DNA of 64,000 nucleotides from the NCBI GenBank assembly GCA_963701965.1, contig OY969695.1:2784001-2848000 (forward strand), written 5' to 3'. Under the pieces are notes generated by a model. It was not told the origin of the DNA. It made no database searches and worked only from the letters and a program-made list of their open reading frames with translations. The stretch comes from an uncultured Gemmatimonadales bacterium (lineage in GTDB: Bacteria > Gemmatimonadota > Gemmatimonadetes > Gemmatimonadales > Gemmatimonadaceae). Positions 9,201 through 29,178 of this stretch are shown here, piece by piece. Position 1 is the stretch's first letter, and each line of letters starts with the position of its first letter. Position numbers and translations under genes: made by a program.

Positions 9201-10217
9201 ATGGGGGCCCGTAAGCCGAGGTCGCTCCCCTTGTCCGTGACATTCTCGCCGGCCGATCTCAGTCGGATGGAGATGGCCGCGGAGGCGCTGCTGTCCCCGC
9301 TCGCCCACGAGCGGGTCGATGATTGGCGGCGCACGGTCACGCGCACGATCAAACGCGCGCTCGACGGGGACCGGGCCACGTTCACCCTCGCGCCGCCCAG
9401 TGAGCCGGGCGCCGGGGCGACGTTCAGCGAGGAGGACCCGACGGTCGCGCTGCGCCCCGACGCGCCCGATGAGCCGGTGTTCGGGTCCGGCCCGATGGAC
9501 AACATTTGCCATGCCGCCGGCATGCAGGCGGCGTGTCGGACGACCAATGCGGTCGGGGTCGTCGTGGTCACGCGCGACGGCCAGGGGACGCTCCCATTTG
9601 GCGAAAAGGCGTTCGCCATGCTTCGGTTGCTGCAGCCGGCCCTCGCTGTGGGCATCGAGATGCGGCAGCGGTTCGCGCGGCGCCGCGCCGAGTTTCACCG
9701 GGTGCTGGACGCGATGCGCGAGGGGCTGGTCCTGATCGACGCGTCGGGACGCGTCGTGCACGAGACGCCAATGCTCGGACGGCTCATGGCCGACGAATGG
9801 GAGTGCGATCGCGTGCGCGCCGTCATGCTGGCCTGCGCGCGGAGTGTCAGCGATGCGCTGCGCGGCATCGGGCTCCCGCGCGGCGCGCTCACGGAGCTCT
9901 GCACCGCGCAGCACCGGTATCGCGTCCGCGGGTGCTACGCGGGCGACGAGTTGGCGGGTTCGGCCGCTGTGCTTGTGGCGCTCGAACGGGTGGGCCCGGC
10001 GCCGGCGCCGGACGATGCGACGCTCCGGGCCCGGTTTGGCCTCACGCCGCGCGAAATCCAGGTCACGCGGCTGCTGGCCGCCGGACGGCGAAACGACGAC
10101 GTCGCGGCGTCGCTCCAGATCAGCCCGCACACGGCGCGCCGCCACACCGAGCGGGTGCTCGCCAAACTCGGCGCCACGTCGCGCGCCGCCGTGGGAGCGC
10201 TCCTCCGCGGCACGTAG
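9201..10217 (+). CDS. LuxR-type HTH regulator with PAS-like segment
   Basis: C-terminal GLTPREIQV...ISPHTARRHTERVLAKLG; start uncertain. Confidence 0.8.
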   Translation: MGARKPRSLPLSVTFSPADLSRMEMAAEALLSPLAHERVDDWRRTVTRTIKRALDGDRATFTLAPPSEPGAGATFSEEDPTVALRPDAPDEPVFGSGPMDNICHAAGMQAACRTTNAVGVVVVTRDGQGTLPFGEKAFAMLRLLQPALAVGIEMRQRFARRRAEFHRVLDAMREGLVLIDASGRVVHETPMLGRLMADEWECDRVRAVMLACARSVSDALRGIGLPRGALTELCTAQHRYRVRGCYAGDELAGSAAVLVALERVGPAPAPDDATLRARFGLTPREIQVTRLLAAGRRNDDVAASLQISPHTARRHTERVLAKLGATSRAAVGALLRGT

Positions 10218-10285
10218 GCGCCGGCCGTAAATTTGAGCGCAAGACTTGGCGCGCGTCATCGGCGAGGGCCAAGCATCATTGGAGC

Positions 10286-11326
10286 ATGACTGAGACAATC
10301 GTGAAAGACGAGGAGCGGTGGGCGGCGCTCGACGCCCGGGACCGCCGCTACGATGGCGCGTTCGTCTACGCCGTCCGTACCACGGGGGTGTACTGCCGGC
10401 CGAGCTGTCCCTCGAAGAGGGCGCGGCCGCAGAACGTCGCGTTTTTCGGGACGGCCGCGGAGGCCGAGCAGGCGGGGTTTCGCGCGTGCCGGCGGTGCCG
10501 GCCGCACGCCGCGGATGGGGCGCCGATCGAGCGATCCGTCCGGGCGGCGCAAGCGTATCTCGATGCGCGGGTCGGCGAGCGGGTGCCGCTCCAAAAGCTG
10601 GCGCGCGCCGTGGGCTTGAGCCCGTGGCATGTGCAGCGGGCGTTCACGCGGCTCGTCGGCGTGTCGCCCAAGGCGTATCAGGACGCGCGGCGGCGCGAGG
10701 TGTTCAAGGACCGGTTGCGCGATGGCGCGACGGTGAGCCGCGCGGCTATCGAGGCGGGTCTCGGTCCGTCGGCGCGCGACGGCGCGCCGTTGGGCATGAG
10801 TGCAGGGACGTATCGCCGCGGTGGACGCGGAGAGTCGATCCGCTACACGGTCGTCCCCACATTGCTCGGCGCGTTGCTCGTCGGGACGACGGATCGCGGC
10901 GTGGCGACGGTCTTGCTCGGCAACGGTGAGCTGGAGCTCGAGGCGGCGCTCGGCGCCGAGTTTCCCGCGGCCGACATCGCGCGCGATGACGCGGCCGTCG
11001 GAGCGATCGTGCGCGACGTGGTCGACGCGATCGAGCGCGGCGACAGCGGCGCGACGCTGCCGCTCGACGTCCGCGGTACGGCGTTCCAGATGCGCGTCTG
11101 GCACGCGCTGCGCGAGATCCCGCGCGGAGCGACGCGCACGTACTCGGAGATCGCGGCGGCCATCGGCCAACCGCGCGCGGTGCGCGCCGTCGCCAGCGCC
11201 ATCGCCGCCAATCGACTCGCGGTGCTCGTCCCCTGCCACCGCGCGGTGCGCGCGGATGGCACGCCCGGCGGTTATCGCTGGGGGCCAGAACGGAAGCGCC
11301 GGTTGCTCGAGCGCGAGCGCGCATGA
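10286..11326 (+). CDS. ada: Bifunctional Ada regulator / O6-methylguanine-DNA methyltransferase
   Basis: GVYCRPSC...GFRACRRC Zn site, AraC HTH, active-site PCHR; GGAG RBS. Confidence 0.93.
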   Translation: MTETIVKDEERWAALDARDRRYDGAFVYAVRTTGVYCRPSCPSKRARPQNVAFFGTAAEAEQAGFRACRRCRPHAADGAPIERSVRAAQAYLDARVGERVPLQKLARAVGLSPWHVQRAFTRLVGVSPKAYQDARRREVFKDRLRDGATVSRAAIEAGLGPSARDGAPLGMSAGTYRRGGRGESIRYTVVPTLLGALLVGTTDRGVATVLLGNGELELEAALGAEFPAADIARDDAAVGAIVRDVVDAIERGDSGATLPLDVRGTAFQMRVWHALREIPRGATRTYSEIAAAIGQPRAVRAVASAIAANRLAVLVPCHRAVRADGTPGGYRWGPERKRRLLERERA

Positions 11327-11331
11327 TGCGA

Positions 11332-11363
11332 AAAGTCTCCGAGGAGAAATCCTCGGAGACTTT
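11332..11363. terminator. Perfect 14-bp hairpin, probably a bidirectional terminator for ada and tRNA cassette 1
   Basis: AAAGTCTCCGAGGA-GAAA-TCCTCGGAGACTTT. Confidence 0.8.
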
Positions 11364-11384
11364 CACTACGTGGTGGAAATTAAC

Positions 11385-11402
11385 CACGCCGGCTTGACAA
11401 GT
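11385..11402. repeat. Inverted copy (17/18 nt) of the anticodon-arm region of tRNA cassette 1
   Basis: CACGCCGGCTTGACAAGT versus the tRNA's CACACCGGCTTGACAAGT (reverse complement of 11505-11522). Confidence 0.9.
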
Positions 11403-11461
11403 GCCACGAATGTATGCAATCGCACCGGCGCGGTCAACCGGTAGTTTGGCGCTAACTAGCG

Positions 11462-11545
11462 TGCCCGGAGCGGGACTCGAACCCGCACGACCTCGCGGTC
11501 GCCGACTTGTCAAGCCGGTGTGTCTACCAATTCCACCATCCGGGC
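11462..11545 (-). tRNA. Type II tRNA with tRNA-Leu body but anticodon GAC (Val); CCA not encoded
   Basis: GCCCGGA/TCCGGGC acceptor, A73, D arm GTGGAATTGGTAGACAC, anticodon arm CCGGC-TT GAC AA-GTCGG, long V arm GACC-GCGA-GGTC, T arm GCGGG-TTCGAGT-CCCGC. Confidence 0.9.
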
Positions 11546-11714
11546 ACTCTTCGCGATGGACGGAATTGGATGTTGCGACACGAGCTTCGACTGTCGTTCG
11601 CCACTAGCTAGCGGTGGCGAATCTCGCGCTACGTGAGGCGCGCGTCGTCATCGTTACACTTCGTACATCATCGGGAACGCGGAACTCGACGCCCTGACGC
11701 GGGATAAGAGCCGC

Positions 11715-17613: not shown

Positions 17614-18215
17614 TGGAGCCACGGTGGCCCGCCACCGTGGCGTTACTGACGATCGGGGCGCTCAATCTCGTGCTGCCCCGATCGTTGACGCTCGGTCCCG
17701 AGTGGCTGCTCCTCGTGATCGTGTGCGTGATGTTGGTGCCGATCATCCTGACGCACCGTCGCGGGCGCTATCAGCTCAACCACGCGTTCGCCATGACGTT
17801 GGCGGTCGCGATCACGATCGAGCTCATGGCGGCGGTCGCCCTGCTGCTGGCGGCGCTGCCGGCGCATACGGAAACTCCCGCCAAACTGCTCCAGTCGGCG
17901 GCGGTGCTGTGGTTCACGAACGTGCTCGTGTTCGCCTATTGGTACTGGCGCCTCGATGCCGGCGGGCCGAACCAGCGGGCCAAGAATGGGCAGAAGAACG
18001 GCTCGTTCTATTTTCCGCAGCTCGTGCGCGGCGATACCGGGTGGCGGCCGGGGTTCATCGACTATCTCTTTCTCGCGTTCACGACCAGCACCGCATTCTC
18101 TCCCACTGACACACCGGTACTCTCTCCATGGGCGAAAGCGCTCACGATGCTCCAGGCCGCCATCGCATTCTCCACGGTGACCGTTCTCCTCGCCCGTGCT
18201 ATCAACTTGCTCTAG
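17613..18215 (+). CDS. DUF1345-like membrane protein
   Basis: FAYWYWRLDAGGP, WRPGFIDYLFLAFTTSTAFSPTD. Confidence 0.75.
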   Translation: MEPRWPATVALLTIGALNLVLPRSLTLGPEWLLLVIVCVMLVPIILTHRRGRYQLNHAFAMTLAVAITIELMAAVALLLAALPAHTETPAKLLQSAAVLWFTNVLVFAYWYWRLDAGGPNQRAKNGQKNGSFYFPQLVRGDTGWRPGFIDYLFLAFTTSTAFSPTDTPVLSPWAKALTMLQAAIAFSTVTVLLARAINLL

Positions 18216-20464
18216 CGCTCGCGGTATTCGGGGCGGTACCGGCGCTGGCCCAGACCGCGGATTCGTCGCGCGTCACGCTCGATCGCCTCTTTGCGTCGGC
18301 TGATTTCGCGACGGACCGGACGGGCGGCCTGGAGTGGCTTCCCAAGTCGCCAGCCTACTCGGCGTTCGAGGCGGGCACGCGGGGCGGCGGTGATCTCGTG
18401 CGCTACGACGCGGCGACGGGCGCCCGGACGGTCCTGGTGCCGGCGGAGAAGCTGGTGCAACCGGGCACGACGCACGAGCTGGCGGTCGAACGCTACGCAT
18501 GGTCGGCCGATGAGAAGAAGCTCCTGCTCTTCACCAACTCGGCGCGGGTGTGGCGGGAGAATACGCGCGGCGACTTCTGGGTCTACGATCTGGCGACCGG
18601 CACGCTCCGGCAACTCGGCGGCGACGCCAAGCCGTCGACGCTCATGTTCGCGACGTTCTCGCCCGATGGCGGCCGCGTGGCCTACGTGCGGGAGCACAAT
18701 CTCTACGTGGAAACGGTCGCCGACGGCCACATCACGCAGCTGACCACGGACGGATCGCCGACGATCATCAATGGAACGTTCGATTGGGTGTATGAGGAAG
18801 AGCTGAACGACCGCAACGGGTTTCGGTGGAGCCCGGATGGGAAGCAGATCGCGTACTGGCAGCTCGACGATGCGGGCGTCAAGGACTACGATCTCATCGA
18901 CGATACGGACTCGCTGTACTCGTTCACGACGCCGGTCCAGTACCCGAAGGCGGGGACGACCAACTCCGGCGCGAGGGTGGGGATCGTCGACGCGGCCGGT
19001 GGCCCGACCCGGTGGCTGGCGCTCACGGGGGACCCCAGGGCGTATCTGATCGCCCGCATGAGCTGGGCCGGCAACTCCGATGCGGTCGTGGTGCAGCGTC
19101 TCGACCGCGAGCAGCATCAGAACGAAGTCGTGTTGGGGGACGCGCACACGGGCGCGGTGCGGCCGGTGCTCACGGAGCGCGATAGCACGTGGGTCGATCC
19201 GGTCGACGACGTGCGGTGGTTCGATCGCGGCGCGCGCTTTCTGTGGGTCAGTGAGCGGGACGGCTGGCGCCGGCTGTACACGGTGGGGCGCGATGGCGGT
19301 GGGGTTCGGCCGCTCACGCCCGCGGCCGTCGACGTCACCACCCCCGGCAGTCCGTTCGGCGAGCCGTTCACCGCCGGCATCGACTCGGCCGCGGGCTGGG
19401 TCTATTACACGGCGTCGCCGACGAACGCCGCGCAGCTGTATCTGTATCGCGCCCGATTGGATGGCAGCGGCCGCGCCGAGCGGGTGACGCCAGCCGCGCA
19501 GGGCGGGGTGCATGAGTACGAGCTGTCGGCGGACGCGAAGTTCGCGATCCATCACTGGTCAGCGTTCGGCACACCGCCCACGGTCGAGATCGTGCGATTG
19601 CCGGACCACCACGTCATACGGCAGGTGACCGACAATGCGCGGCTCGCCCGCACCGTGCGGGCGTTGGCCCGGGGGCCGGTCGAGTTCACCCAGATCGACA
19701 ACGGCGCGGGCGTGCGGCTCGATGCCTGGATCATGAAGCCGCCGGCGTTCGATTCGACGCGTAAATATCCCGTCCTCTTTTTCGTGTACGGCGGGCCGGC
19801 CGAGCAGACCGTCCTCGATCAGTGGGACGGAGACCAGTATCTGTGGCATCTCATGTTGACCCAGATGGGATACATCGTGGCTTCGGTCGACAACCGTGGT
19901 GCGCCATCGCCCCACGGACGCGCGTTCCGGCACGCCATCTACAAGCGCGTCGGCGTCGTCGAGTCCGCCGACCAGACGGCCGCGGCCCGCGCGATCGCCG
20001 CGCGATCGTACGCTGACGCCACGCGCGTCGGAGTCTGGGGATGGAGTAACGGGGGCTCGATGACCCTCAACCTGCTGTTCCGCTCGCCCGACGTCTATCG
20101 CATGGGCATCGCCGTGGCGCCGGTGACCGACGAGCGGTTCTATGACACGATCTATACCGAGCGCTATCTCGGTCTGCCGCAAGACAACGCCGAGGCGTAC
20201 AAGCAGGCCTCGCCGCTCAACTACGTCGATCACCTGCGCGGCGATCTCTTGCTCGTGCATGGTTCGGGCGATGACAACGTGCACTATCAGAACAGCGAGG
20301 CGCTCATCAACGCGCTGGTGGCGGCGGACAAGCCGTTCACGATGATGGCGTATCCCAATCGCACGCACTGCATCTGCGAGGGCGAGAACACGTCGCGCCA
20401 CTTGTACGGCCTCTTGACCCGGTACGTGCGCGATCACCTGCCGGCGGGACCGAGCGTGCAGTAG
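18128..20464 (+). CDS. S9 family dipeptidyl-peptidase IV-like protein
   Basis: DWVYEEE, YPKAG, GWSNGG, DDNVH, YPNRTH; start uncertain (overlaps upstream gene). Confidence 0.92.
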   Translation: MGESAHDAPGRHRILHGDRSPRPCYQLALALAVFGAVPALAQTADSSRVTLDRLFASADFATDRTGGLEWLPKSPAYSAFEAGTRGGGDLVRYDAATGARTVLVPAEKLVQPGTTHELAVERYAWSADEKKLLLFTNSARVWRENTRGDFWVYDLATGTLRQLGGDAKPSTLMFATFSPDGGRVAYVREHNLYVETVADGHITQLTTDGSPTIINGTFDWVYEEELNDRNGFRWSPDGKQIAYWQLDDAGVKDYDLIDDTDSLYSFTTPVQYPKAGTTNSGARVGIVDAAGGPTRWLALTGDPRAYLIARMSWAGNSDAVVVQRLDREQHQNEVVLGDAHTGAVRPVLTERDSTWVDPVDDVRWFDRGARFLWVSERDGWRRLYTVGRDGGGVRPLTPAAVDVTTPGSPFGEPFTAGIDSAAGWVYYTASPTNAAQLYLYRARLDGSGRAERVTPAAQGGVHEYELSADAKFAIHHWSAFGTPPTVEIVRLPDHHVIRQVTDNARLARTVRALARGPVEFTQIDNGAGVRLDAWIMKPPAFDSTRKYPVLFFVYGGPAEQTVLDQWDGDQYLWHLMLTQMGYIVASVDNRGAPSPHGRAFRHAIYKRVGVVESADQTAAARAIAARSYADATRVGVWGWSNGGSMTLNLLFRSPDVYRMGIAVAPVTDERFYDTIYTERYLGLPQDNAEAYKQASPLNYVDHLRGDLLLVHGSGDDNVHYQNSEALINALVAADKPFTMMAYPNRTHCICEGENTSRHLYGLLTRYVRDHLPAGPSVQ

Positions 20465-20491
20465 CGGTGACAACGCGATCGCCACGATGAC

Positions 20492-20530
20492 GGCTAGCGG
20501 CTCGAAGTGGAGATATTCGAGTCGCTAGTT
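20492..20530 (+). other. 15-bp hairpin in the leader of tRNA cassette 2
   Basis: GGCTAGCGGCTCGAA-9 nt-TTCGAGTCGCTAGTT (three G-U pairs), enclosed by CGCCAC/GTGGCG. Confidence 0.6.
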
Positions 20531-20588
20531 AGTGGCGTGCAATGAGTGAGCCCGTGTCGCAGCATCCAGTTTCATCCGCGTGTAGAGT

Positions 20589-20672
20589 GCCCGGATGGTG
20601 GAATTGGTAGACACGGCAAACTCGCAAATTGCCGACCGTAAGGTCGTGCGGGTTCGAATCCCGCTCCGGGCA
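20589..20672 (+). tRNA. Type II tRNA with tRNA-Leu body but anticodon CGC (Ala); A31-A39 mismatch; CCA not encoded
   Basis: Acceptor and D arm identical to 11462-11545; anticodon arm GCAAA-CT CGC AA-ATTGC; V arm GACC-GTAA-GGTC; T arm GCGGG-TTCGAAT-CCCGC; A73. Confidence 0.88.
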
Positions 20673-20726
20673 CGCTAGCTAGCGCCACATTGCGCGTCGC
20701 TTCCTGGTTTCATAGATTCAAGGCAC

Positions 20727-20742
20727 TTGCGAGTTTGCCGTG
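20727..20742. repeat. Perfect 16-nt inverted copy of the anticodon-arm region of tRNA cassette 2
   Basis: TTGCGAGTTTGCCGTG is the reverse complement of CACGGCAAACTCGCAA (20612-20627). Confidence 0.92.
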
Positions 20743-20743
20743 G

Positions 20744-20776
20744 CGAGCCCCGGGGAGAGATCCTCGGGGTTCGTTT
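20744..20776 (+). terminator. 13-bp hairpin with GAGA loop, terminator-like
   Basis: CGAGCCCCGGGGA-GAGA-TCCTCGGGGTTCG then TTT; core resembles the 11332-11363 hairpin. Confidence 0.7.
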
Positions 20777-20795
20777 GCATCGGAGCGTGTGCGGC

Positions 20796-20830: not shown

Positions 20831-22096
20831 GTGGAGGACAATCTCTCGCTCGAGCAAAAGCTGGTGCTGCTGACGTCGCTCGCAGCCGATGACCGTGAGG
20901 GTCCACCGCCGCCACGGCTGCGGAACACCAGCACCAAGAAAGTCGGCGCTCTGCGCCCCCTCAACATCCGCACCGTCCGCGTCGGGACATGGACCACGTC
21001 GCTGTTGCGCGTGCTCATGACCAACGCCTGTAGCTACAATTGCCACTACTGTCCGATGCGCCGCGATCGGAACATGCCGCGGACGCTGCTCAAGCCCGAG
21101 GAGTTGGTGAAGATCTTCCTCGCGGCCCACGCGCGCGGATGGTGCCAGGGATTGTTCATCACGACGGGTATTCCGGGCCGGCCGACCAAGATCATCGATG
21201 ACCTGATCCAGGTATTGGAGCTCCTCCGCGGGAAGCACCGGTTTGGCGGCTACATCCACGTCAAAATGCCGCCGGGCGGCGAGCCCGCGCAGATCGAGCG
21301 CTTGACTGCGTTGGCGAGCCGGGTGTCGATCAATCTGGAGACCCCCTGCGGCCAAACGCTCGAGCACATTGCGCCCGAAAAGAACCTCGACCAGACGCTG
21401 GTCAGCCTGGAACGGTCGCGCACGCTCGTCAACCACGCGCGCGAGGCCGAGCGGGACGGGAGGCGCCGGGACCCGCTCTCGCCGGGCGGTGTGGCCGGTA
21501 TGACCATGCAGTTCGTCGTCGGCGCGACCGCCGACAACGACCGGTCGATCATGGGTCGGGTGACGGCCCTCTACGCCGGCGGCGGCATTCATCACGCGCA
21601 CTTCTCGGCGTTCCGCCCGATCCGCGACACGCCGATGGAGTCCCAGCGGGCCACACCGGCGCTGAGGGAGCACCGGCTCTACCAGGTGGACTATCTGCTC
21701 CGGCAATACGGATTTTCGCCGGAGGAGATCGTCTATGGCGCCGGAGACAACATCCCACTGACCAATGATCCCAAGACCACTTGGGCGCTGGCGCACCCGG
21801 AGCGGTTTCCGGTCGAGCTGTCGAACGCGGATCTCGAATCCCTGCTCCGCGTGCCGGGAGTCGGCCCGACCTCGGCGCGGCGCATCGTCGAAGGCCGGCG
21901 CGGCACCACGATCCGGGGGTTGTCCGATCTGCGCCGGCTGGGGGTCGTGACGTCCCGGGCCGCGGGGTTCGTGGCGATTCGCGGCCGGCGGCTGAGCGAC
22001 ACCCGGTGGGCCGAGCAGCTGGGCATTCGGCGGCCCGAGGACGAGATTGGGACAAGGTGGCAGGCTTACGAAGTCAGTCCGGGGACTTTTCGATGA
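20831..22096 (+). CDS. Putative DNA modification/repair radical SAM protein (TIGR03916-like) with HhH motif
   Basis: MTNACSYNCHYC, GYIHVK, REHRLYQ, LLRVPGVG. Confidence 0.85.
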   Translation: MEDNLSLEQKLVLLTSLAADDREGPPPPRLRNTSTKKVGALRPLNIRTVRVGTWTTSLLRVLMTNACSYNCHYCPMRRDRNMPRTLLKPEELVKIFLAAHARGWCQGLFITTGIPGRPTKIIDDLIQVLELLRGKHRFGGYIHVKMPPGGEPAQIERLTALASRVSINLETPCGQTLEHIAPEKNLDQTLVSLERSRTLVNHAREAERDGRRRDPLSPGGVAGMTMQFVVGATADNDRSIMGRVTALYAGGGIHHAHFSAFRPIRDTPMESQRATPALREHRLYQVDYLLRQYGFSPEEIVYGAGDNIPLTNDPKTTWALAHPERFPVELSNADLESLLRVPGVGPTSARRIVEGRRGTTIRGLSDLRRLGVVTSRAAGFVAIRGRRLSDTRWAEQLGIRRPEDEIGTRWQAYEVSPGTFR

Positions 22097-25923: not shown

Positions 25924-26382
25924 ATGCGTCGCGCCCTCGCCGTCCTCTCGTTGGTGACTGCTGTCACATTCCAGAGCGCCGCGGCTCAAACGTCGGCCAA
26001 GCCCTGGATGACGACGTTCATTTACGGTGTCGTGCCGTCCGCCGTGGCCTCGGCCGCCGCCCAGTGCCGCGATGGGCTCGCCACAGTAAGCCGCGGCGAA
26101 ACGCCAGCAAGCGTCCTCGCCAGCATTCTGACGCTCGGCATGTTCTCGCCGATCACGATCGCCGTCACCTGCGCGACCCCGCGCGCCCGCGCGCCGCTGA
26201 CCGGCCCGGTGGCCGTGACGATCGATGGATTGCGCAACGCCCTAGCCAACGCGGCCGACGCGACACTCAAGTCGCACCGTCCCGTGCTCGTGCGCTACAT
26301 TGCCGGCTGGACCGCCGACAACGCATCCGGCGACGCCAACAGCGCGTCCATCGCGTCGATCGTCAACGGCCGCGAGATGTAG
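25924..26382 (+). CDS. Secreted Bor/Iss-like protein
   Basis: FIYGVVP...QC..G......LASILTLGMFSP.....TC pattern; overlaps the 3' end of the convergent EAL gene. Confidence 0.55.
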   Translation: MRRALAVLSLVTAVTFQSAAAQTSAKPWMTTFIYGVVPSAVASAAAQCRDGLATVSRGETPASVLASILTLGMFSPITIAVTCATPRARAPLTGPVAVTIDGLRNALANAADATLKSHRPVLVRYIAGWTADNASGDANSASIASIVNGREM

Positions 26383-29046
26383 TTGCCTTGCCCCAGGTCG
26401 CACCCCAGCGACCGGAGCTCGTGCAACTGCCCGGCCGTCTCCACGCCTTCCGCGACCGTCTGCAAGTTCAACGTCTCGCCGAGCCCGATGATGGCCCGCG
26501 CCAACGCGGTGTCGGTCGTCGCATGCGTCACGACATCGACAAACGGTTTGGCGATCTTGAGCAGGTCGATCGGAAACCGTTTGAGATAGGAGAGCGACGA
26601 CGCCCCCATGCCGAAGTCGTCGAGCGCCAGCCGGATGCGGAGCGACTTGAGCGTGCGCAGCTGCGCCAGCATGACGTCCGTCTGCTGCATGAGCGCACTC
26701 TCCGTGATCTCCAGCACCAGCGATGTCGACGCCAGGGCGCTCTCCGTCAGCGCGAACCGCAGCGACTCGATCAAGCTCGGATGCTGGAGCTGATTCGCCG
26801 AGATGTTCACGGTGAGCAGCAGCGGCACATTGCGCGGATGCGCCAGCTGCCAGCGCTTGACCTGCTGGCACGCCTCCCAGAGCACCCATTGCCCGATGGG
26901 CACGATCAACCCCGTCTCTTCCGCCGCCGGAATGAACTCGCTCGGCGCCAACGTCCCGCGCCGCGGATGCTCCCAGCGGAGCAGCGCCTCCATGCCCGCG
27001 ACACACCCCGAGCGGAGATTGAGGATCGGCTGGTAGCGCAGCGAGAACTCGTCGCGCTCCACGGCAAGCCGCAGCTCCGTCTCGAGCTCCAGCCGTGCCA
27101 GCGTCTCGGCGTGCATGCTGGCCTCGAACAACTCGTGGCGCGCCTTCCCGTGCGCCTTGGCCTGATACATGGCCGTGTCCGCATTGCGCAGCAGATCCGA
27201 CGGGCTCAAGTCCGGCGTCGCCACCGCAATCCCGATGCTCGCCGATGTATGGACTTCTTTCCCTTCGACCAGCAGCGGTTGCCGCAGCGACGCCGTGATC
27301 CGCTCGGCGGCCAGCGCCGGCGCCATGGCCCCTGACGCATTCCTCCAACAAGATCGCGAACTCGTCGCCCCCCAATCGCGCCACCGTGTCGCTGGTGCGC
27401 ACCGCCTCGCACAAGCGCCGCGCCACCGCCGCCAGCAACTGGTCCGCCGGCAAGTGCCCGAGGCTGTCGTTGAACGCCTTGAAGTTGTCGAGATCGAGGA
27501 ACAACACCGCGACCGGATGGCGGCCCGACGCCGCCGGACCACCATATCGTCCCGTGATCGCCAGCGCATGGCTGACGCGATCGAGAAAGAGCGCCCGGTT
27601 GGCGAGGCCCGTCAGCGGATCGTGAAATGCCTGATGGACCAGCTGCGCTTCGAGCGATTTCCGTTCCGTGATGTCGCGCGTGTTGACGACCACCCCGCGG
27701 ACCGTCGGCTCGTGGACCAGATTCGTGCCCACCGCCTCGACGTACATCCACCGCCCGTCCCGGTGCCGAATCCGCCACTCGCTCGGCGTCGTCACGCCCG
27801 CCCGGAGCGCGGCCTCGGCGAACATCGCCTCGCCTCGCGCCACGTCGTCCGGATGGAGCAGCGCGGTGATCGGTTTGCCCTCGATGTCCCCGGTCGGATA
27901 CCCCAGGACGCGCGTCGCCGATGGGCTGCAGTACCGGACGATCCCGCCCGGCTCGACGATGACGATGACGTCCGACGAGTGCTGCACCAGCGAGCGAAAC
28001 CGCGCCTCGCCCTGGCGCGCCGCGCGCTCCGACACCAATCGCGCATTCTCGCGCACCGCGGTGATCTGCCGCATCACGATGAGCACCGCCACCAGAATCT
28101 CGCCCACGGCCAACATTGACCACGGCTGACCCGGCGCCTGGAACGCGTCCCGCAGCAACATTGCCGAACACAGCGTCAGCACCACGTACGGCAGGGGACT
28201 GAACGGCTGGACCTCGGCGTCCGTGACCGACTCCGCGTCGGCGGGCGCACCATTGGGGTCGATCGCCCAGCGATACAGTCCCCAGACCAGCAGCGCGTAC
28301 GCCAGCATGAACGTGAGATCCGTCCAGTTGATGCCGAACGGACCCACGCGTTTGAGCACGAGATCGTTGGCCAGATCGCTCAGCGTGAAGACCGCCACGC
28401 CCGTGAAGAAGAGCGTCCCCGCCAATGATCCGCGCGCCGGCAACCGGCGCAACAGCACGGTGGTGAGGCCCGCCAGCACGAGGATGCTGCCCAACGGGTA
28501 CAGGAACGTGATCACCGTCGCGACGACGCCCAGCTCGCCCTCGATCGCGGTCGGCACGACGACGAGCTGCCAGATGGCGATGCCGCCGCCGATCAAGACC
28601 GTCAGCGTGTCGTAGAAGAACTTCCGGCGCTCGATGCGCCGCCGATCCGCCAACGGCAGCGAGACGAGCCCCGCGACGAACAACGGGTACCAGCAGAGAT
28701 AGGGAAGGTTGACCCACCACGACGCCGTGTAGTCGCCGAGCTGGAAGACGTTGGTGTACAGGGCGGAGCACGCGTTGCCGATGAGCACGCAGACCCACGC
28801 CGTGCCGAACCACCGGGACGCCCGGCGCACCCTCTCGTCGCTGACCCGCGAGGCCGCGAACCACGCCATGAAACACGTGGCGACGTTCATCGGCAGGAAC
28901 GCCACGGCCGTGACGATCAATCGACGCCCGGAAAGGGCGGTCGACGTCGCGAACAGCACCGGATAAAGGACGGCCCAGGCAGTCGCCGCGACGGCCATCG
29001 CGCGGGCAATACCGAGGGACCGCCGGGGGTTGGCGTTCACGGTCAT
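26295..29046 (-). CDS. Membrane sensor-PAS-GGDEF-EAL protein with one +1 frameshift at ~27340
   Basis: HDPLTGLANR and RLGGDEF in one frame; ASIGIA, EALLRW, LDDFG in the next; removing one base at 27340-27341 fuses them. Confidence 0.88.
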
Positions 29047-29178
29047 TACGAGGAAGGACGCGCAGCCCGGGGCGATCGTTTCGGAAGTGTCAAATCGCTG
29101 TTGGCAACGTAAGCCCATGTGAAACAATTATTTGCACTGAAACCAGTGACGAACGGGCCGTCGCTTCGTGTGGAGAGT

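Follow-up and report, generated by a model that had tools for sequence, protein, structure and literature searches.

Two validated kinds of type VIII toxin-antitoxin (TA) system, CreTA and SdsR-RyeA, are described in the available parts of the sources on this type, and in neither of them is a tRNA the toxin (PMC10767807, PMC12737573). In both kinds, the two partners are RNAs encoded next to each other and no protein toxin is involved, a layout that the predicted anatomy of the module reported here fits. CreT moreover works on translation via a tRNA. However, in CreTA the target sequestered by CreT is a rare tRNA of the host, and repression of the CreT promoter by CreA involves Cascade; SdsR and RyeA differ in that they overlap on opposite strands. 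In the module reported here, a tRNA is predicted to be the toxin, and the predicted antidote lies downstream on the same strand without overlap and would pair directly with the anticodon or the variable arm. Rfam recognized two tRNAs only in the window, i.e., the whole stretch of 64,000 nucleotides analyzed (contig OY969695.1 of an uncultured Gemmatimonadales bacterium), and returned no family for the leader or the predicted small RNA of the module; furthermore, no Cas gene was seen among the neighbors of the family loci.

The hok/sok and aapA/isoA systems, as presented in the available text of the source, share with the predicted layout of the module a short antisense RNA with its own promoter, a toxin transcript locked by 5'-3' pairing and paralogs insulated by their sequence; their precursors are locked until they are processed (PMC8167048). 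Unlike these systems, in which the mRNA of a toxic peptide is opposed by an antisense RNA from the opposite strand of the toxin gene, the module contains no toxic peptide or mRNA among the listed ORFs of at least 80 aa. Its antisense sequence is a separate complement on the same strand, and a tRNA arm is the target.

Allo-tRNAs and tRNA-ProX are the closest known systems on the side of the tRNA. According to the text and one supplement of Mukai et al. available to us, allo-tRNAs carry non-cognate anticodons, among which those for GCG and GUC are frequent, cause toxic missense suppression in E. coli, where missense allo-tRNAs comparable to the tRNA described here kill the cell, and were suspected of a tie to TA systems; the supplement also lists a tRNA-Leu-type 'tRNA2' with 7/5 fold and UUA anticodon (PMC5389517). 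They differ in their 8/4 or 9/3 folds, in their Ser/Ala identity (with G73 or U73 for the Ser type), in their occurrence in Acidobacteria, Clostridia and Proteobacteria and in the protein TA genes in their neighborhood. In the same text and supplement the terms 'antisense', 'complementary', 'Gemmatimonad' and 'Planctomyc' occur zero times (PMC5389517). The tRNA-ProX/ProRSx pairs of Streptomyces and Kitasatospora are likewise natural tRNAs with a mismatch of body and anticodon, which mistranslate and are toxic in E. coli, but they have a Pro body, A34 and a dedicated co-encoded synthetase isoform, and no antisense partner is described for them in the available part of the source, a 2024 review of mistranslating tRNAs with zero mentions of 'antisense' or 'toxin' (PMC11415595). 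A tRNA toxin with its own antisense RNA was not found described in the full-text literature searched, to which most subscription journals do not belong, so that absence from print is not proven.

A leucine-type tRNA with an alanine anticodon

ARAGORN and Rfam agree on a class II tRNA with 7/5 fold and anticodon CGC upstream of a radical SAM gene (51.6 bits, E 3.6e-8; Table 1), and lowering the ARAGORN threshold only added noise. The anticodon loop reads CU-CGC-AA, A31 faces A39, the acceptor stem contains C3-G70 and the variable arm is GACC-GUAA-GGUC. The set of bacterial tRNA-Leu identity features, taken from the available part of PMC9976931, is present: the discriminator A73, A15-U48, G18G19, A20a, the long variable arm and intact contacts of D- and T-loop. 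A35, which would make it a Leu isoacceptor, is replaced in the CGC anticodon. CCA is not encoded, as in five of the six other host tRNA-Leu loci shown. Its sequence identity amounts to 83% with the other Leu-body tRNA in the window (anticodon GAC) and to 82% with the third one of the genome (C1:2559322-2559405, anticodon CGC). Given the intact body and the recurrence of this design in many genomes, the tRNA is not a product of chance.

According to the same partly available source, E. coli LeuRS requires A73 and elements of the D- and T-loop and does not require the anticodon, while AlaRS requires G3-U70 (PMC9976931). A sequence-only reading of this locus had described a Leu body with an Ala anticodon, an opened 31-39 pair and C3-G70, and had argued that charging with Ala is not to be expected; both points hold, as the tRNA lacks Ala identity. 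Its separation of the tRNA from allo-tRNAs and from the Pro-type tRNAs of Streptomyces is likewise borne out by the 7/5 fold, A73 and the Leu body. It had furthermore counted GCG among the most frequent codons, and with 64.0 per 1000 GCG is the commonest one in 1704 heuristically chosen long ORFs. Besides this gene, the genome, 5.1 Mb in one contig, has regular genes for tRNA-Ala(CGC) and tRNA-Val(GAC) as well as six for tRNA-Leu. The names of homologs of the adjacent radical SAM protein assign the host to Gemmatimonadota.

Table 1. Features of the odd tRNA module, of the second module and of the flanking genes in the window
Feature	Position	Strand	Basis
DPP IV/S9 peptidase gene, flank, outside the module	18128-20464	+	
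Possible promoter of the tRNA precursor, weak; hexamer 20487-20492 conserved and -35-like, -10 of this copy degenerate	20487-20517	+	position inferred from third module and L030; weak
Conserved 5' leader	20523-20588	+	alignment of modules
Leu-body tRNA gene, predicted toxin; anticodon CGC at 20623-20625	20589-20672	+	ARAGORN, Rfam, sequence
3' arm of closing helix, immediately after A73	20673-20684	+	sequence pairing
Sigma70-like promoter of antisense unit; -35 20690-20695, 17-nt spacer, -10 20713-20718	20690-20718	+	7/12 consensus matches
16-nt exact reverse complement of tRNA nt 24-39 (20612-20627: 5' strand of anticodon stem plus loop); 5' part of predicted antitoxin RNA	20727-20742	+	sequence
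Predicted terminator, a GC-rich hairpin ending in a short U-rich tail	20745-20777	+	sequence
Radical SAM/helix-hairpin-helix protein gene, flank, outside the module; own promoter-like site from 20796	20831-22096	+	
Second module, Leu-body tRNA, Val anticodon GAC	11462-11545	-	ARAGORN, Rfam
Second module, antisense unit; -35 11432-11437, -10 11409-11414, 14-nt exact complement 11389-11402, terminator hairpin 11330-11364	11330-11437	-	
Second module, leader	11546-11613	-	

The antisense unit downstream of the tRNA

The sequence-only reading had also held that a tRNA delivering Leu to GCG must be restrained if active. This is supported, but the probable restraint itself was overlooked: 55 nt after A73 starts a sequence exactly complementary to the anticodon arm of this tRNA, preceded by a promoter-like element and followed by a hairpin, all within a module of about 300 nt. 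Each of the three modules of the genome carries an exact complement of 14-16 nt (14 nt in the third) to its own, different anticodon arm, and at the host tRNA-Leu control loci (six, plus one att-like partial copy) the complement reaches at most 9 nt. The promoter was scored against the sigma70 consensus. A generic scanner found zero signals, the antisense promoter and the terminator of this copy lying below its threshold.

The predicted small RNA spans about 20724-20777, i.e., approximately 55 nt, and its 5' end is mostly unpaired. Cofolding gave about -11 kcal/mol net for the small RNA with its own tRNA and 0.0 with the host tRNA-Ala(CGC); specificity is imperfect in that the RNA of the Val module reaches -10.5 with the host tRNA-Ala(GGC). 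Between tRNA and complement there is no terminator, and therefore a read-through precursor would be locked in cis too; in folds of the read-through transcript the anticodon arm pairs with the trailer (z -5.2 and -7.4). The final hairpin is predicted to terminate both the antisense RNA and any read-through transcript of the tRNA. In the small share of two RNA runs covered, the reads were generic tRNA-Leu pieces only.

A family of Leu-body tRNAs with antisense partners

Genomes of relatives, genome contigs, viral contigs and metagenomes were searched, with identical sequences counted once and only parser-readable sequences considered. The search revealed at least 191 distinct Leu-body tRNAs, namely 24 with Leu anticodons, 71 non-Leu ones with an antisense unit and 96 non-Leu ones without it by the rule used. 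Among the matches listed, the unit accompanies 71 of 167 distinct non-Leu Leu-body tRNAs vs. none of the 24 true Leu tRNAs. It is directed against the anticodon arm in 63 members and against the variable arm in eight; as these eight target the variable arm instead, it would be the blocking that is conserved rather than a sequence. The named carriers among these matches belong to Gemmatimonadota and Planctomycetota, and 14 non-Leu anticodons occur in the antisense-bearing members listed, for Ala, Asp, Arg, Thr, Val, Ser, Glu and Pro.

The antisense sequence is specific for the tRNA beside it. Own pairs reach a mean pairing score of 16.2. Cross pairs average 6.7 where the anticodons differ (1936 pairs) and 7.9 where they agree (416 pairs); a score of 10.5 is reached by 1.2 and 7.5% of them, respectively. 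The own partner scores best in 43 of 49 members. Scores are distributed bimodally, with a maximum of 8.5 in 14 Leu tRNAs. A promoter motif (TTG-N3/16-18/TAnnnT) ends 3-10 nt before the complement in 41/49 members vs. 60 of 12289 background windows, and visual inspection shows TTGAC with a variant -10 in seven of the remaining eight members. None of the 24 Leu tRNAs has the motif within 110 nt, even in its relaxed form. L131, with a score of 10.5 and no promoter, was left out of the family. Metagenomes were searched with a pattern consisting only of the tRNA and the first three trailer bases, and all 17 loci found (16 distinct tRNAs) possess complement and promoter; although newly collected, these loci are akin to the first set and not fully independent of it.

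Moreover, the tRNA bodies are well preserved. Pairs are intact in 491/497 cases in the acceptor stem and in 351/355 in the T-stem, and mismatches affect 24 of 355 pairs of the anticodon stem vs. 10 of 852 in acceptor and T-stems. A15-U48 occurs in 56/56 members, A73 in 49/49 and G3-U70 in 0/49; conservation of the D-loop, U33, purine 37 and the T-loop was built into the search patterns, most searches excluded anticodons with A35, and related members are not independent of each other. Targeted codons have a mean frequency of 28.4 per 1000 compared to 21.1 in a GC-weighted null (p 0.02, frequencies of the window genome), which is suggestive only of anticodons being aimed at frequent codons.

The opened 31-39 pair had been proposed to act through an effectively 9-nt loop that weakens decoding or promotes frameshifting. 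The corresponding pair at orthologs of the same site is U-A, C-G, C-A, C-G and C-G, and it is mismatched in 8 of 71 family members, whereas the four remaining pairs of the stem together show 16 mismatches in 284 cases (Fisher p 0.11). As the A31-A39 mismatch is not conserved, the idea finds no support and was ruled out as the mechanism; the mismatch may have a tuning effect in this copy or facilitate strand invasion.

Since 96 have none by the rule used, non-Leu Leu-body tRNAs can exist without a nearby antisense unit, although in a few of the 96 (L103, L086) it lies upstream or was missed by the rule. L103 carries two Leu-body tRNAs in tandem (CGC, CAC) with the best complement of each upstream, an alternative layout. 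The tRNAs without antisense unit (L054-L172) include Ser, Pro, Gly, Asp and Thr anticodons from other phyla and from archaea, among which normal class II tRNAs or further mistranslators may be found. A further group of Leu-body tRNAs carries stop-codon anticodons, i.e., TTA (L059, L087, L097, L120, L126, L132, L149, L153, L161), TCA (L040, L082, L096, L134) and CTA (L034, L052, L143), and stems from Alphaproteobacteria, Chloroflexia, others and viral contigs; no antisense unit was found beside these ochre, opal and amber types, and they are possibly natural nonsense suppressors. L029 possesses an extra unit about 180-270 nt after the tRNA that is complementary to the conserved D arm, a possible broad-range antitoxin.

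Joint switching and orphan antisense units

At three orthologous sites, whose flanks are 74-94% identical, anticodon and antisense sequence switch together. Upstream of the radical SAM gene, the site of the window (flanks 74-75% identical), CGC occurs in four genomes, each time with another stem, and CGG at two metagenome loci, and every complement tracks its tRNA with single positions imperfect. At the MutS-TonB site the anticodons are CTC, CGC and CAC, and the RNA of one CGC member targets the variable and D arms; the S9-PP2C site holds CGC or TGG.

Furthermore, promoter-antisense-terminator units occur as orphans without an adjacent tRNA, at C1:2559600 upstream of the third module and in L030, L069, L162, L179, L222 and L232. 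L222 (TGG) retains an anti-CGC unit, and L030 and L232 (CGC) carry an anti-AGG unit; an AGG member was not found in genome G003 by pattern search, the check for cognates having covered the window genome and G003. Since these units exist without an adjacent tRNA, they argue for a separate trans-acting RNA. Such orphans have to be transcribed independently and are compatible with antitoxin arrays.

By a strict pattern, which skips A35 anticodons and missed known members, modules are present in at least 14 of 401 genomes of the phylum, the window genome included, and five of six genomes of the genus contain them. In G002 (90% complete) the DPP IV gene is joined directly to the promoter of the radical SAM gene, representing an empty site; the radical SAM gene was not found in three of the five genomes probed for it.

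The leader and the tRNA precursor

Alignment of the two window loci shows that the flanks of the tRNA are shared. The leader can pair at 20523-20534 with the segment following A73, closing a helix around the tRNA; its stretch 20554-20569 is complementary to the D arm, and GU at -2/-1 can pair with A73/C74. Among 13 aligned close members, GTGTC and GACAC pair in 65/65 cells, CCAR and YTGG form eight G-C, four A-U and one G-U pair, and the closing helix shows compensatory changes. As the changes, G-U and compensatory ones included, preserve RNA pairs, the flanking boxes are read as an RNA helix, and their interpretation as palindromic sites for a protein or recombinase was rejected. The leader together with A73/C74 lengthens the acceptor stem by at least two pairs in 39/56 members, compared to 0/24 Leu tRNAs and 33/96 other non-Leu tRNAs.

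In predicted folds, the precursors of the three modules of the genome are 10.7, 9.3 and 0.3 kcal/mol better without the cloverleaf. The acceptor stem is predicted to be open in 31/48 precursors, but also in 8/14 Leu controls, and the specificity of leader for arm is modest (median rank 13 of 48). Folding statistics were therefore discarded as an argument for a leader lock, since the control did not discriminate; a lock of the leader on the tRNA precursor is plausible as a model.

Proposed mechanism and alternative explanations

Judged by its sequence features, the module is a real, conserved, two-part RNA system made up of two adjacent predicted RNA genes without a protein toxin, and the locus probably combines a mistranslating-tRNA toxin with a dedicated antisense RNA as antitoxin. 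The tRNA would be matured, receive CCA and be leucylated by the host LeuRS, and it would then decode GCG and place Leu at Ala codons. The small RNA would be made in excess from its own promoter, and its single-stranded 5' end would invade the anticodon loop, thereby blocking decoding or marking the tRNA for decay. In addition, the same antisense sequence might act in cis and, together with the leader, keep the precursor inactive, similar to what happens in hok/sok or aapA/isoA. Upon module loss or a shut-off of transcription by phage or stress, the supply of small RNA would stop, and the longer-lived tRNA would cause proteome-wide Ala-to-Leu errors and growth arrest. The pair may serve selfish maintenance, defense against phages or dormancy. 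For the family as a whole we lean, with more reserve, towards a widespread protein-free TA family, in which the toxin would be a working tRNA that uses the anticodon blindness of LeuRS and misreads the most frequent codons of its host. A small RNA directed against the anticodon would be the antitoxin, a joint swap of anticodon and antisense sequence would reprogram the specificity, and hosts would accumulate orphan antisense arrays as immunity to other tRNA toxins.

A different role of the antisense sequence would be a switch acting only in cis, where the complement works inside the precursor and keeps the tRNA unfolded until a signal such as processing or stress frees controlled Ala-to-Leu miscoding, with neither a separate small RNA nor addiction. 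The missing separation of tRNA and complement by a terminator, the read-through fold and the conserved leader pairings are consistent with it, but the promoter motif keeps a fixed distance before the complement in both data sets (41/49 and 17/17), and neither the orphan units with promoter and terminator nor the upstream antisense sequences of L103 can act via a downstream trailer, which makes a pure cis-switch unlikely. It is also improbable that the tRNA is a non-decoding decoy, toxic or regulatory, that sequesters LeuRS, EF-Tu or RNA-repair factors and whose 'anticodon' is merely a tag for the antisense RNA. Such a role could explain the greater tolerance of the anticodon stem for mismatches, including A31-A39 in the window copy, and the position of one member between RtcB and Ro60 genes, and it has a parallel in the many allo-tRNA(UAU) that are inactive in translation (Mukai et al., PMC5389517, as far as its available text goes). 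A plain decoy would however not need a non-Leu anticodon, the loops of 7 nt present sense anticodons biased toward frequent codons, and members of the variable-arm type retain non-Leu anticodons though their antisense RNA mostly binds elsewhere.

The roles might also be reversed: the small RNA would act on tRNAs or mRNAs of the host, and the tRNA-like RNA would be its sponge. Orphan antisense units exist, the complement of the 7-nt loop fits the loops of host isoacceptors as well, and some cross-binding to host tRNAs is predicted; nevertheless, the complementarity tracks the module's own variable stem and not conserved host tRNAs, orphans that are harmless without a partner suit an antitoxin, and the window RNA has no net binding with the host tRNA-Ala(CGC), making this reversal very unlikely. 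Neutral decay of a duplicated tRNA-Leu with the remnant of an inverted duplication, or an assembly artifact, is extremely improbable: A31-A39, the weak promoters of this copy and the patchy distribution would suit it, but 71 distinct intact bodies in two phyla among the matches listed, the complement following each change of stem and anticodon at orthologous sites and the result for the fresh metagenome set speak against it. Co-variation refutes decay at the level of the family, and this single copy could be silent. The probability is close to negligible that GCG is reassigned to Leu genome-wide or that the gene is an ordinary tRNA-Ala of unusual shape, as its ARAGORN label tRNA-Ala would have it. 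Among the 17 GCG columns of the neighboring radical SAM protein, 13 are Ala-majority and Leu is at 0.00 (one protein, 119 homologs), refuting a reassignment; GCG is still Ala. Moreover, the old isoacceptor tRNA-Ala(CGC) is kept, and an ordinary tRNA-Ala would be expected to have the G3-U70 that is absent here.

If the preferred reading of a mistranslating-tRNA toxin with an antisense antitoxin is true, a tRNA would serve as a toxin that is silenced by its own antisense RNA, and the very few TA systems made of RNA only would gain a further mechanism. This would provide a testable answer to the question raised for allo-tRNAs and tRNA-ProX, i.e., why bacteria carry intact, apparently lethal missense tRNAs. 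Many mis-annotated 'tRNA-Ala/Val/Asp/Arg' genes would be predicted to be control elements, and the module would represent a natural, programmable on/off switch for tRNA activity. With its function confirmed, it would formally belong to type VIII, a catch-all defined by the type of molecule.

Genomic context and further observations

The scan of neighbors covered 64 of 80 segments, 16 being omitted as already scanned or as orthologous repeats. No synthetase domain was found in the 23 ORFs scanned in the window nor among the 64 neighbors of family loci, which also include no integrase. The neighbors are diverse, with no consistent protein partner. Plasmids gave no match for the module, phage matches were ordinary tRNA-Leu bodies only, and the antisense unit was absent from the parsed viral hits.

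Genes linked to DNA repair (Ada, radical SAM-HhH, ATP-dependent ligase, UvrA, MutS) are found next to several modules, namely at 9506-11326 and 20831-22096 of the window, at L001:5732-7462 and in L006 and L028, while most family neighbors are unrelated. A link to DNA repair was rejected on the grounds of this diversity. In L008:1379-1686, a module with Ser(GGA) anticodon is located between an RtcB gene and a Ro60/TROVE gene, a position in which tRNA-like Y RNAs are usually found.

Elsewhere in the genome, tRNA-Leu(TAA) is followed some 11.6 kb downstream by a repeat of its 3' portion, resembling an attachment site of an integrated element (C1:4797850-4797906 and 4786253-4786336). Near the start of the contig, tRNA-Ser(TGA), Thr(CGT) and Leu(CAA) each have a second copy (C1:49605, 90871, 155452); unlike most tRNAs of the genome, these copies encode CCA, and they possibly mark a foreign or mis-binned segment (contamination 4.2%). 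Within the window, a PAS-GGDEF frame (26245-29127) and a GGDEF-EAL frame (26298-27569), on the minus strand, overlap out of frame, and the GGDEF domain is split between them (profile positions 1-109 and 96-160), so that this is a frameshifted or mis-assembled gene.
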